64,000 nucleotides of DNA, taken from Nitrospirota bacterium (GTDB lineage Bacteria; Nitrospirota; UBA9217). The stretch spans positions 672,001 through 736,000 of the forward strand of contig CAVVUN010000015.1 of assembly GCA_963751455.1 (NCBI GenBank), in the 5' to 3' direction. Positions 8,921-36,015 of the stretch are shown here, piece by piece (within the stretch, counting starts at the first letter, position 1; every line of letters begins with the position of its first letter). The position numbers and the translations under genes were made by a program. The notes beneath the pieces are model-generated. The model ran no database searches, had not been told where the DNA came from, and saw only the letters and a list, made by a program, of their open reading frames with translations.

Positions 8921-9195
8921 AATTGTAAAATGCAAAGTGCAAAGTGCAAATTGAAAATTTGATTGAAAACTTTCTAACAAACGGAAATATGCGATAATTC
9001 CACAACCCCCTTTGAATTCTGTCTTCCAGCTTTTATCCGCGCTCATCCGATTCTTCCGCGTCCAAATTGGTTTTGCATTTTCACTTTGCACTTTTTAATT
9101 TGCATTTTTCAATTTTTATAAAATCTACTCTTCTGCGGTTGCTTAACGATCAAAATGACCCATTTAACTTTGCAATTTGAAATCTGCAATTTAAT
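8921..9195. repeat. Inverted pair of imperfect heptamer tandem repeats (TGCAAAG/TGAAAAT type)
   Basis: tgcaaag tgcaaag tgcaaat tgaaaat near 8931-8958, mirrored by tttgcat...tttgcac...tttgcat tttcaat near 9072-9115. Confidence 0.75.
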
Positions 9196-9204
9196 TAGAA
9201 CCTA

Positions 9205-9789
9205 CTACTCTCCCAGGTACCTGTCCACATACTGCGCCAGGATTTCCTGGGTCTTTACGGGTGGGGGGAACGCGAAGTACGAGCAGATAACAGCATGCGC
9301 GATTTCGTGGGCAAGGACCCGGTCAGTGACGCTGTCAAGGGAGACGGCTATCGTGCGGGAAGCATGATCGTAATAGGCGGCAGGGGGCTGCCTGTTGTTG
9401 ATGAGATATGTATATGCGCGGTCGATCTCGGCCCTGGTACGGTAGACGTCTATCGAGAAGCGAAGGACCGCAGGCCGCATGCCCAGTATTTTCATTACGT
9501 CGTTCACAAGCCTGTCTACGCGTTTCGCGGCCAGCAGTGGGTCTTTTTCCGGACTTTCGAGCAGGTAGTTGAGCCCGCTTCCGATCTGGCGCGCAAACGT
9601 GAACAGGTCTTCCTGTTTCTCATAGAATACGGTCGCATACCTTGTCCTGTACGCCCTGCTCTTGTTGCCTGAATCGACTTGAGAGGGAACGAAAAGCAGG
9701 CCGATCAGGACAAAAGCAGCGAGATATCCCACCGGGCCAATAATGATATTACCGCTTCTCCAGTCTTGATGTAAATTCATGATGATCAC
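9205..9789 (-). CDS. Exported zinc metallopeptidase-like protein (HExxH)
   Basis: N-terminal hydrophobic anchor; VLAHEIAHA with a downstream E (QEILA). Confidence 0.65.
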   Translation of the reverse strand: MIIMNLHQDWRSGNIIIGPVGYLAAFVLIGLLFVPSQVDSGNKSRAYRTRYATVFYEKQEDLFTFARQIGSGLNYLLESPEKDPLLAAKRVDRLVNDVMKILGMRPAVLRFSIDVYRTRAEIDRAYTYLINNRQPPAAYYDHASRTIAVSLDSVTDRVLAHEIAHAVICSYFAFPPPVKTQEILAQYVDRYLGE

Positions 9790-10068
9790 AGCCCAATGAC
9801 CGGTAAACTGGATATCAGGTCAGCCGACAAAGCTCAGGCTGATTGCGGTCACAGGTGTAAATATTTCCGACATATGTTCGTTTTGTTGTATTCTCCTGGT
9901 AATTATTATATCGAGCAAAGCAATTGTTGGTGTGTTATTACGCATTGAGCTTGTGCCTCTTTCCTCCTTGAATCCATCCGAACACCACTGTATTATGTAA
10001 TACAATAGAGAAGATATCTTTGCTGTTTATTCCGGACCGAGCGGATCCAAGCGCGATGGAGTTTCAAC

Positions 10069-10704
10069 ATGAACCATCTGAATTTTATCTTCGTGTTTAT
10101 GGTTGCTTTAACGGGAGAAGCCGCTAGTGACGCAGGCGCGGCCATTGAAGTCAGAATGGACAATGCCGGTATCACCGGAAAAAACAAAGTTCTCGCTCCC
10201 AGGCTTATAGAAAAAATAGAATTCTACGAGGTATGCGGAAGCTGCGAAAAAGACCTGCAGTGCGACTTGACGAAAAAAGCCATCAAGTGCAGCGACGGGA
10301 AAAAATACGATTCGGTTACCGACTGGAAGTTGACGTGGGAATATGGCTATACCAGGACGCGCAGGACATGTCTCGTGGACTCATTCAGGGTTACCGCAGA
10401 GATTACCACCCGTCTTCCGAAATGGGCGGCTCCAAATGATGCTCCGGTGAGCCTGATTGAAAAATGGAACAGCTATTTGACCAGTCTGATGCTTCACGAA
10501 AAAGGGCACCGCGACAGGACTGTTGAGGCCGCACATGATCTTACCAAGGCCGTGGCGGTCCTGCCTGCTGCAGCGATTTGCGCGGACGTGGACCGGGATG
10601 TGGGCGGGCTTATCCGGTTTCATAAAGAAAAGCTTATTCTGGAGCAGAAGGAGTATGACGCGGTAACGCTCCACGGCCACACCGAAGGCGTTAGTTTTCC
10701 ATAA
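10069..10704 (+). CDS. DUF922-type secreted Zn-dependent protease-like protein
   Basis: Signal-like N-terminus; T.W...W.Y, LPKW, LHEKGH and QKEYDAVT.HG..EG pattern. Confidence 0.7.
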   Translation: MNHLNFIFVFMVALTGEAASDAGAAIEVRMDNAGITGKNKVLAPRLIEKIEFYEVCGSCEKDLQCDLTKKAIKCSDGKKYDSVTDWKLTWEYGYTRTRRTCLVDSFRVTAEITTRLPKWAAPNDAPVSLIEKWNSYLTSLMLHEKGHRDRTVEAAHDLTKAVAVLPAAAICADVDRDVGGLIRFHKEKLILEQKEYDAVTLHGHTEGVSFP

Positions 10705-10740
10705 AAAACAGGCTGCGATTGCAGCCTGGACTAATGCCCG

Positions 10741-10772
10741 CTCTCTATCCCCCGTTGAAGGGGAATAGAGAG
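10741..10772. terminator. Hairpin between convergent genes
   Basis: ctctctat-cccc/gggg-atagagag stem. Confidence 0.55.
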
Positions 10773-34286: not shown

Positions 34287-34383
34287 TTCAATCGATTGAA
34301 GATTGGAAATGTAAATTGAAAATTATTTCTTCAATTTTTAAATTTCCAATTTACAATTCTGCCGGGGATCTAAAGGAGATTCT

Positions 34384-35691
34384 ATGCCGGTCTTAGTGGT
34401 AGTAGGCTCTCAATGGGGCGATGAAGGCAAGGGAAAGATCATTGACCTCCTGACCGAACGCGCGGACGTGGTCGCGCGGTATCAGGGCGGTCACAACGCC
34501 GGACATACCGTTGTCGTGGGCATGGAAGAGTTCATCCTGCACCTGATACCGTCCGGCATCCTGCACAAGGGCAAGACATGCATTATCGGCAACGGCGTAG
34601 TCGTTGACCCGGGAGCGCTCATTGAAGAAATGGACGCTATGGCCAAACGCGGCGTAAACATGAAGGACAGCCTGCTGATCAGCAAGAATGCGCACCTTAT
34701 CATGCCGTACCACAAGGCCCTGGACCTGGCGAGCGAGAAGCTCAAGGGAAACAAAAAGATTGGAACAACCGGACGAGGCATCGGTCCGGCATATGCCGAT
34801 AAAATCAACCGGAAGGGCATCAGGATGGCCGATCTTCTTGACCCCGATGTCTTCCGCGACAAACTTGCCTGCAATACCGGCGAGGCGAATTTCCTGCTCG
34901 AACAGTATTACCACTCCCCCCTGGTGCATCAGGACGAGGTATTCGACGAATATATGCGCTATGCCGCGCGGATCAGGAAATACATTACCGATACAACACT
35001 CTTTTTGAGCCGGTCCATAGCGCAGAACAAAAAGATCCTGGCGGAAGGCGCGCAGGGCACTCATCTCGACGTCGATCATGGAACGTATCCGTTCGTGACG
35101 TCGTCGAGCCCGACAGCCGGCGGCGCCTGCACCGGTCTCGGAATCGGGCCGAAAGCGATCAGCGATGTGATGGGGATCGTGAAGGCCTACACCACGCGTG
35201 TCGGCAGCGGACCGTTCCCGACAGAACAGGAAAACAAGCTGGGAGAACACCTCCGGGCCCGCGGCAAGGAATATGGCGCTACAACGGGCAGGGCGCGCAG
35301 GTGCGGTTGGATGGACACGCTCATCGTCCGGCATGCGGTGCGGGTAAACGGCATGACGAGCGTAGCGATAACCAAGCTTGATGTACTCGATTCCCTTGAT
35401 GAGATAAAAATCTGCGTCGGCTACAAATACAAGGGAAAGCTTTATGAAGAGATGCCGTCCGAACTGGCCGTGCTCGAGAATGGGAAGCCTCAATATATAA
35501 CCATGCCTGGCTGGAAGCAGACGACGATCGGCATTACCCGGTATGATGACCTGCCCCGGAAGGCCCGTGCTTACGTCGAGAAGGTCTGCAAATTGTGCGG
35601 CGTGGAGCCGGCTATCATCTCAACCGGAGCGCGCAGGGACGAGACGATCATTCTGAAGCAGCCTTTCAAGAAGACAGCTGCGAGGAAATAA
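34384..35691 (+). CDS. purA: Adenylosuccinate synthetase
   Basis: [43 protein letters not shown]. Confidence 0.97.
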
Positions 35692-35850
35692 AACATTAAA
35701 TTCCAAATAACAAGCGCCAAATAACAAATAAGCATCAATAAGCAAGCAAGAAGTTCGGAGTTCAGCAATTTGGATTTAGCAGTGTCCCGTAAATTTTGTT
35801 GCAAAACCGCGGGAACTCTGATAATATACGCGTCTTCGCGTGGAAAACGC

Positions 35851-35926
35851 GGGCCGGTAGCTCAGTTGGTAGAGCACCGCCCTTTTAAGGCGGGTGTCCT
35901 GGGTTCGAGTCCCAGCCGGCTCACCA
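35851..35926 (+). tRNA. tRNA-Lys (TTT)
   Basis: Cloverleaf; anticodon loop CTTTTAA, GGTTCGAGTCC T-arm, CCA end. Confidence 0.96.
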
Positions 35927-35931
35927 CTTCA

Positions 35932-36015
35932 ATTGCGGATTGCAGATTGCGGAATTCGGATTGAAAGAAAAAGTCAGGCAGTTAAATCCGCAATCCGAAA
36001 TCCACAATCCCAAAT
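35932..36015. repeat. Inverted heptamer repeat between the tRNAs
   Basis: ttgcgga ttgcaga ttgcgga attcgga mirrored by aatccgc aatccga aatccac aatccca. Confidence 0.75.

Follow-up and report, generated by a model that had tools for sequence, protein, structure and literature searches.

Mirrored arrays of 7- to 10-base repeats in a Nitrospirota genome and their probable relation to small cassettes of GxxExxY and four-helix-bundle genes

The systems closest to the repeats analyzed here have been described apart from one another, and are given as they appear in the accessible parts of the papers cited here and below. The 23S rRNA intervening sequence (IVS) of Coxiella and Leptospira is a unit of about 450 nt with an inverted stem of about 28 bp, tandem heptamers and an open reading frame (ORF) for a four-helix-bundle protein, and decay of this ORF has been reported (PMC4990558). 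In Geobacter metallireducens, paired tandem 7-, 8- and 9-mers of classes 1-4 were read as sites of a global regulator, IHF/HU (PMC2700814). The GGGAATC heptamer repeats of Xanthomonas and Nostoc, which lie near stop codons and are often paired in Xanthomonas, were read as G-quadruplexes (PMC4692102), and the TAACTGA repeats of Beggiatoaceae are mostly unpaired (PMC4679880). In this work, tandem arrays with inverted partners were studied in a stretch of 64,000 nt (the window, G000:C15:672001-736000, G000 being the label of its own 5.72-Mb Nitrospirota genome) and in related genomes. Such mirrored 7- to 10-base repeats between genes are real and number hundreds genome-wide. They are a mixture and not one family, in which a few sites are cargo of miniature inverted-repeat transposable elements (MITEs) and most are likely gene-less forms of gene-bearing cassettes.

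Abundance and anatomy of the arrays

Genes were called with our own hexamer model (4,722 genes, 77% coding), which misses some genes, so that distances and gap classes are approximate. The 3,291 intergenic gaps of up to 600 nt formed the enrichment set, and three dinucleotide shuffles served as control. Arrays of period 7, 8, 9 and 10 numbered 338, 119, 246 and 176 in these gaps compared with 5-13 in each shuffle, which placed intergenic arrays of these periods 10-35-fold above shuffles, while periods 5, 6, 11 and 12 gave only 21, 28, 42 and 20 arrays. The comparison with shuffled sequence, on which an earlier note about this DNA had let its claim of a repeat family depend, thus returned enrichment. 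An inverted partner within the search radius of 250 nt was detected for 564 of 1,155 non-coding arrays, against 66-80 in a control with swapped flanks, and the purine-rich arm led in 388 of 436 polar cases. After merging, 369 pairs with gene context were obtained in G000, with a median arm of 30, loop of 32 and total length of 94 nt. The arms matched better in register (0.75) than shifted by one unit (0.63), a test biased by the aligner and given little weight.

Periodic arrays were present at all 14 starts listed in the earlier note. The mirrored architecture it described was recovered by arm alignment at 12 of them (arm length about 25-45 nt; z-scores for folding between -2.2 and -7.1 on one or both strands), but the sites at 35695 and 22965 were decayed or composite. 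Units of 7 and 9 bases were both common, as had been noted, yet periods 8 and 10 were common too, and the intergenic location applied to most sites but not to that at 12740, which lies inside the 5' coding end of cusB. The polarity was reversed, with the pyrimidine arm first, at 14135 and 17380; the site at 21813 lies between divergent genes and that at 17380 between convergent genes.

The repeat sites of the window span housekeeping genes (cusCBA-type efflux, scpAB, ribonucleotide reductase, serC, serA, purA and two tRNAs), and the repeat-bearing stretch stops at an integrase-bounded island. An Rfam search of the window returned the two tRNAs and no other matches. As the earlier note had observed, no array pair was found within the island at 36.1-62.4 kb, where only three unpaired two-unit matches occurred; taken alone this absence is weak, since about 2 pairs are expected in 26 kb at the genome-wide mean. 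The trend is backed by gap occupancy, which was 22/555 where the flanking genes were least host-like and climbed to 115/556 where they were most so.

Two layers were distinguished among the 369 pairs: 96 have a near-full copy elsewhere in the genome and 273 do not. The 273 single-copy pairs begin a median of 14 nt past a stop codon and avoid divergent gaps (8/273 vs 372/2,899, p 5e-8), and the multicopy pairs lie in divergent gaps at a rate like the background (12/96).

Gene-bearing cassettes, junction states and rival explanations

A link of the arrays to GxxExxY or four-helix-bundle genes, which the earlier note had proposed to look for, was supported by arm enclosure and by matching units. 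Cassette loci of the family genomes were sampled by score rank (70 of about 246 GxxExxY matches and 90 of about 182 four-helix matches; L-numbers below are locus labels in G000 and its relatives, and the ends of cassettes and single-copy pairs are defined only approximately). In these loci, which were chosen by gene, inverted arms enclosed 66 of the 69 scorable GxxExxY genes and 85 of the 89 scorable four-helix-bundle genes, compared with 25% and 20% at that score in the swapped-flank control. The arm period was 7 in 58/85 four-helix cases and 8-10 in each of the 36 GxxExxY cases for which a period could be called. Among 30 loci of each kind, about 21 and 22 different junctions were occupied, and the cassette pointed the same way as the host gene upstream of it in 53 of the 54 cases that could be resolved.

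G000 itself has 10 GxxExxY and 9 four-helix-bundle matches. All eight distinct GxxExxY loci showed 8-10-mer arms by eye; of the four-helix matches, L003 was enclosed (by eye also L001 and L007), L002 had direct arrays and several were not enclosed. Decay intermediates were found in the same genome, namely 7-mer arms around an internally deleted four-helix gene (L126), a gene split by a MITE (L003) and broken GxxExxY genes (L015-L017). Units of the window recurred as cassette arms: CCACAGAG in 3, CACGAAG in 3 and CACGGAT in 8 of the 70 GxxExxY loci, and TGCGGA in 6 of another 20 four-helix loci; the CCAAACAAA type, in reversed form, adjoins one four-helix cassette (L491). A scan of 15 ORFs in 20 regions of 58 long-range inverted pairs gave no further cargo family, 14 of them being ordinary host genes between two neighbouring elements and one having no match. 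As a separate observation by eye, each of the two hemH-hemG-like gene pairs of G000 encloses a GxxExxY cassette, intact in one pair and broken in the other (L013 and L017), and the arm units of the two cassettes differ.

At orthologous gaps, where the earlier note had suggested scoring presence and absence, relatives usually held a pair too, with another unit. In the serC-serA gap of 47 family genomes, 34 had a detectable array (period 8-10 in 29 and period 7 in 5, with units varying from genome to genome), one had a long nested insert, 11 had no detectable periodicity and one was short and empty; most of the 11 showed decayed arms by eye, and seven genomes of other families with serC adjoining serA had short gaps or different sequence. 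The tRNA-Lys/Glu spacer contained an array in 28/29 family genomes, 25 of them of period 7, the serA-purA gap had period 7 in 25/49, and the scpA, HEAT-scpB, cusB-cusA and cusC-cusB junctions behaved alike by inspection of the loci listed. The position of the junction, and often the period, is conserved; the sequence is not.

Three states, i.e. empty, arms only and arms with gene, occurred at single junctions, even within one genus. At nuoH-I, nuoI-J and nuoJ-K, gene-length inserts made up 2/30, 4/29 and 2/28, many gaps were arms-only, and 4, 5 and 13 were short and empty; the GxxExxY junctions of relatives, when mapped on G000, were filled, arms-only with the same or another unit, or empty. 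A single junction could differ in period and unit among members of a genus, a 7-mer element sharing its loop sequence was present at several junctions in both orientations in the relatives G006 and G013, and pairs were nested in the loops of other pairs, to a depth of three at L118. Loop sharing was rare among single-copy pairs, the largest loop clusters counting 11, 5 and 5 of 215. No target duplication was found at cassettes or single-copy pairs, the flanks of which matched no better than shuffled pairs (MITE control 48/52), and this argues against DDE transposition. Palindromes resembling repetitive extragenic palindromic (REP) sequences, GTCATTCC...GGAATGAC and CGTCATTGCGAG...CGCAATGAC, were also seen at nuo junctions of relatives (L178, L181, L185, L200 and L201), so these junctions collect several kinds of hairpin element.

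The arm unit tracked the GxxExxY tree, with 12 label changes over 70 proteins compared with 44.6 in shuffles, none of 200 being as low (the mis-cut outlier row L077 was kept in the count). Arms were detected at 66 of 78 homologues from other genomes, mostly of other phyla, 47 of them with the CGCARAG-type unit of the query; these homologues share 48-67% protein identity with the query, its own record aside. The unit was kept across Cyanobacteria, Planctomycetota, Acidobacteriota and others, yet freely swapped at single junctions. Such a pattern would be that of a cis site bound to its protein, and what the comparison of sequences establishes is linkage. PF13366 was found in 68/68 GxxExxY proteins, in which E27, D67, E77 and K79 are invariant and QxxxY is near-invariant. 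The best structural neighbours of the GxxExxY model (pLDDT 94.8) were restriction-endonuclease-like (3ijm, Z 8.2, root-mean-square deviation 3.2, 99 aligned), and others were Cas4 (4ic1, Z 7.4) and Hjc (1gef, Z 6.3), while comparison of the sequence with solved structures gave nothing meaningful and Foldseek no match at E 0.001 or better. The protein has an intact D...ExK core, and its model a PD-(D/E)XK nuclease fold.

On the transcribed strand, G.U and A.C were balanced, at 327/332 genome-wide and 267/281 in gene-bearing cassettes, in contrast to short post-stop hairpins (61/25). A DNA-level model was chosen on the basis of this balance, the nesting, the absence of target duplication, the lack of an enclosed RAYT or reverse transcriptase (RT) and the coupling of unit and protein. 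Most sites may be gene-less forms of small selfish cassettes built around a GxxExxY or four-helix-bundle gene and spread at the DNA level, a reading to which we give about even odds (0.5). The gene-less forms are likely related to 23S rRNA IVSs and likely spread by DNA-level recombination. Shared anatomy, matching units, the three junction states, nesting and the absence of target duplications are matters of observation, and the suggestion of the earlier note that the repeats are scars of a mobile process gained support from the cassette anatomy, the matching units and the junction states.

A cassette would consist of two inverted arrays of a 7-10-base unit flanking the gene (8-10 for GxxExxY, mostly 7 for four-helix), would settle just downstream of host stop codons and would be transcribed from the host operon. 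The encoded protein may recognise its own repeat unit; a cut at the arm pair, as duplex array or cruciform, would be repaired from another copy, and such repair would swap the unit of the junction and at times bring the gene, with elements replacing or nesting in each other. The gene would decay by frameshift, internal deletion or MITE insertion, leaving arms, then one arm, then nothing, and some old copies are perhaps retained by the host as RNA stems. More tentatively, these cassettes could represent an undescribed self-mobilising class, free of transposase and of target duplication, in which each protein lineage reads its own tandem-repeat code, targets post-stop DNA or resident loops and drives its own homing together with hundreds of gene-less copies. 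If true, this class would explain the bacterial excess of 7-base repeats and the origin of 23S rRNA IVSs.

Several results weigh against the cassette reading. A cassette gene was found in 0/150 loci at the window's own junctions (serC-serA, serA-purA, purA-tRNAs, scpA and cusB, four of the loci being those of G000) and none lies within the window, so a former gene at these sites is conjectural. The period class is kept per junction (7 in 25/29 tRNA spacers and 25/49 serA-purA gaps, 8-10 in 29/47 serC-serA gaps), with which long residence and drift in place fits too. The TGCAAAR unit of the sites at 8921 and 12740 surrounded a cassette gene in 0/29 targeted loci. No near-identical, recent gene-bearing cassettes were found at different sites, so that movement itself is deduced. 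Kin share labels, and the tree result therefore speaks for linkage and not for recognition; structural matches of Z about 8 indicate the fold and not the substrate of GxxExxY, and we know of no catalytic activity of the four-helix protein. Finally, a mild excess of G.U over A.C was seen in the gaps of relatives (146/103, p 0.008, kin not being independent) and at tight junctions (143/115, p 0.09). The same aligner gave no bias in a second control (140/136), which limits the power of the strand test.

These last figures bear on the main rival, which does not exclude the DNA-level model: the host would keep the pairs as RNA stems, for cleavage by RNase III or as stabilised polycistronic segments, the cassettes having supplied them. 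Such a function would explain why junctions stay occupied, and the pairs do lie in transcribed junctions directly past stops, fold well in their arms and occupy the tRNA-Lys/Glu spacer in 28/29 genomes. In the Coxiella analogue, RNase III cleaves in vitro a 28-bp stem with tandem GACAGAT heptamers round the S23p gene (PMC4990558); a unit of GACAGA type is found in cassette L220, and G000 encodes RNase III. The G.U excess in relatives' gaps and the in-register match, with its aligner bias, point the same way. However, no G.U bias was seen genome-wide or in cassettes, close relatives have clean empty junctions in the same operons, the folding energy was not consistently better on the transcribed strand, and RNA stems need neither tandem periodicity nor a unit tied to a protein lineage. 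The proposal of RNA-level processing or stability elements in the earlier note thus kept a mild G.U excess in old junction copies and lost the overall balance, and we consider it rather unlikely as the main account.

It is more unlikely still that slippage and template switching between arms create the arms-only pairs and let them drift where they stand, as neutral repeats of simple sequence, with the likeness to cassettes reflecting only old ancestry. The constant period class per junction, the 0/150 filled alleles at window junctions and the lack of shared loop sequence in most single-copy pairs are consistent with this, as is the mutational continuum formed by the units TGCGGAG, TTCGGAG, TGCAAAG and TTCAAAG. 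It fares badly with the switching of period and unit within genera at one junction, the three-deep nesting of L118, the shared-loop 7-mer element present in both orientations in G006 and G013, and a unit conserved with its protein across phyla.

A minority of pairs is amplified passively inside ordinary MITEs, and many of the 96 multicopy pairs sit there. The best example is the 164-bp IS1380-type MITE at 29550..29713 (+ strand), with CCTG...TAGG ends and a TTTAT 5-bp duplication, of which there are 61 near-full copies, 28 at 100% identity; its 5-bp target duplication was exact in 48 of 52 tested copies, and CACGGAT arrays lie just within its ends. Autonomous partners with the same ends are two 1,624-bp elements (NF033539 E 2e-34, 119 bits against a cut-off of 180), and a further IS1380-like partner is a 1,866-bp stretch with a transposase of 228 bits; the two autonomous IS1380-like copies with these ends had no arrays in the first 30 bases. 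An older, diverged member of this CCT...AGG group lies at 22995..23161 (- strand) with decayed CACGGAT/CGCGGAT arms and 73-86% identity to other copies. A separate 167-bp MITE (e.g. L129 C11:43612-43781, L122 and L003) has 12-bp ends GTAACTA(T/C)TCAG and 8-bp target duplications and carries a CCGCAGATT 9-mer pair; 48 end pairs were found, most of that size, in a partner search that covered end pairs up to 2.5 kb, and copies were located in array loops and inside one four-helix-bundle gene. Target duplications and many homogeneous copies were not found for the 273 single-copy pairs and the gene cassettes. As an aside, L013 has a right arm similar to the right end of the 164-bp MITE.

A third rival holds that all pairs are MITEs of ordinary insertion sequences, or REPIN-like elements moved by a host RAYT/Y1 transposase, and it appears very improbable. 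REPINs are inverted doublets moving as a unit (PMC3116915), G000 has 33 Y1 matches, 96/369 pairs occur in several near-identical copies, and some pairs are carried by MITEs that have 5-bp or 8-bp duplications. An absent target duplication is compatible with HUH chemistry. On the other side, no array pair enclosed any of the 33 Y1/RAYT-type matches and any array was near only 5/33, so the linked RAYT gene considered in the earlier note was not recovered, and its view that the repeats are not classical REPs gained support. The arms are tandem arrays and not self-palindromic REPs, the autonomous IS1380-like copies lack arrays in the first 30 bases, and 273/369 pairs have no near-full copy. A link to RTs was also rejected, 0/6 RT matches being enclosed by an array pair. 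The weakest rival, by which a global regulator or nucleoid protein of the host (IHF/HU) would bind the arrays, as was suggested for G. metallireducens, matches the anatomy so interpreted there (PMC2700814) and the strand symmetry that DNA binding would give, yet many unrelated units per genome, units swapped at orthologous sites, scarcity in divergent promoter gaps (8/273) and coupling to cassette genes leave it with hardly any probability.

Individual sites of the window

No strand is assigned to the inverted pairs that follow. The first, of unit TGCAAAR, lies at 8921-8958 and 9077-9114 (arm score 28, z -4.3), starting 13 nt past the stop of a sugar-transferase gene, with a third array at about 9163-9192. 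The TGCAAAA pair at 12740-12764 and 12787-12811, supported by array and arm alignment, overlaps the stop of the outer-membrane efflux gene and the first cusB codons (ATG at 12739), and an extra arm lies at about 12878-12902, past an inserted palindrome. It was observed that at 12739-12900 the 7-mer array is translated as an N-terminal extension of CusB before the signal peptide, and that the equivalent extension in relatives (L457-L484) is built from different units. A 9-mer pair of CCAAACAAA type, pyrimidine arm first, occupies the cusB-cusA gap (14142..14212), where most relatives have 7-mer pairs with other units; another of the same type and polarity (17385..17466, z -6.1) sits between the convergent cusA and DnaJ/HTH genes. 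The cusA gene is apparently frameshifted near its 3' end (long ORF 14240-17176, second frame 17137-17367).

In the HEAT-gene to scpB gap there is a weak 7-mer pair, CGCAGAG/CTCTGCG (19828..19892, arm score 12), and between scpA and the HEAT gene a 9-mer pair of CCACAGAGA type (20772..20937), the unit of which is the arm unit of GxxExxY cassettes L235, L241 and L250. The 7-mer pair TGCGGAG/TTCGGAA at 21828..21953, found by arm alignment, has the arm unit of the intact four-helix-bundle cassettes L497-L500, L503 and L504. A lone TGCGGAG array (22964..22990, + strand, z -0.3) lies in the last codons of ORF 21992-22993 and is followed by the decayed MITE at 22995-23161. Since that MITE is an older reverse member of the 29550-29713 group, the homology which the earlier note had drawn between 22966-23020 and the reverse complement of 29689-29745 is genuine and due mainly to the end that members of this MITE family have in common. 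A multicopy unit of about 380 bp or more has a member at 23751..24128 (+ strand; 10 near-full copies, 93-98% identical), in which a CGCAAAG pair surrounds a CACRAAG pair (23933-23960 / 23995-24022).

The serC-serA gap is filled by the 9-mer pair CCACAGAGA/CCACGGAGA (32608..32683). Its stretch 32657-32683 differs from 20911-20937 at only 1/27 bases, as the homology put forward in the earlier note would have it, but the likeness is confined to the arm and common to other loci. The serA-purA gap has a 7-mer pair TTGAAAA/TGGAAAT (34295..34357), a decayed array with a barely detectable partner lies past the purA stop (35697..35778, arm score 8.5, z -0.7), and the tRNA-Lys/tRNA-Glu spacer is filled by a TGCGGAT pair (35931..36016), the unit of which closely resembles the arms of four-helix-bundle cassette L498. 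The serA/purA region was intact.

Other features of the window were also recorded. A REP-like palindrome of about 45 nt, CCTGCACCCAGCG...GCGAGTGCAGG, has match cores at 12827-12856, 19790-19821 and 56619-56650; of its 92 matches genome-wide, 18 have a detected array no more than 60 nt away (background 10%), several have been inserted into array units, and it was near only 1/30 Y1 loci. ORF 30628-31024 has a TGA at about 30840 within 'CAGCCCTCCTGAGGGTGTACT' and an open continuation, and from its sequence may be a selenocysteine (UxC-like) gene. The island at 36058-62200 adjoins tRNA-Glu and encodes a tyrosine integrase (36058-37524), phage replication protein O, a DnaB-like helicase, a 1,943-aa NACHT-type NTPase (weak Avs match, E 1e-5), a second integrase, a TOTE-type primase domain with helicase and an insertion-sequence integrase-core gene.

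Comparison with known systems

If the cassette reading is right, GxxExxY and the S23p-like four-helix bundles, which are large families of unknown function, gain a candidate substrate in their own arm unit, with many natural protein-unit pairs available, and a nuclease that reads a repeat code would make a family of 125-residue sequence-specific enzymes. It would unite repeats described apart in Geobacter, Xanthomonas and rRNA IVSs, offer a cause for the bacterial heptamer-repeat excess noted in PMC4692102, and suggest that in annotation the arrays are best treated as element ends and not as regulator sites. This genome family adds the three-state junction polymorphism, the period code (7 for four-helix bundle, 8-10 for GxxExxY), the link between arm unit and lineage of the protein, and tests for target duplication and strand bias that came out negative. 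In the literature covered, which is partial, so that a prior description is possible, no account was found that connects such arrays at mRNA junctions with GxxExxY or four-helix-bundle genes. Assignment to described families, which the earlier note had set against its proposal, applied in part: two sites belong to an IS1380-type MITE family, one more belongs to a different multicopy unit, and arrays of this build without a gene have been published for Geobacter and Xanthomonas.

The gene-bearing 7-mer form is already known as the 23S rRNA IVS in the account of PMC4990558. Like this IVS of S23p type, the elements here have a terminal inverted stem with tandem heptamers and, at 85/89 family loci though nowhere in the window, a four-helix-bundle ORF in the loop. 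Unlike it, the pairs lie between or in protein and tRNA genes and not in rRNA (the 23S matches of G000 are 3,002 and 2,861 nt, and the complete one of 3,002 nt holds no array), they number hundreds of mostly gene-less copies, and a second cargo, GxxExxY, comes with 8-10-mer arms. The Coxiella IVS is cut by RNase III in vitro, and the pairs here may be.

The IS1380-family MITE is matched only at 29550-29713 and 22995-23161, in the CCT...AGG ends, the 5-bp duplication, the autonomous partner and the recent burst of identical copies; it differs in the CACGGAT array pair inside the ends and explains a minority of pairs. As a model for doublets that do not move on their own, REPINs come nearest in concept. 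REPIN/RAYT systems, as presented in PMC3116915, share the short extragenic inverted doublets that form hairpins and are non-autonomous forms of a gene-bearing element. In contrast, the arms here are tandem arrays of many units, 273/369 single-copy, and not near-identical palindromes, and the enclosed gene is GxxExxY or a four-helix bundle and not a HUH transposase, the RAYT-type genes being unenclosed.

The GGGAATC and TAACTGA repeats resemble those of G000 in having about 4 units, a purine-rich strand right past the stop, frequent inverted pairs (Xanthomonas) and rarity between divergent genes, but in the published accounts as far as accessible they were read as G-quadruplexes or translational regulator sites, with one unit per study, and most units here are unable to form G-quadruplexes. 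The Geobacter sites likewise have 3-5 tandem units on opposite strands at variable distance, intergenic, in several classes per genome; the accessible part of PMC2700814 describes for them no cassette-gene link, junction polymorphism or unit switching, which are the features that the repeats of G000 and its relatives add.

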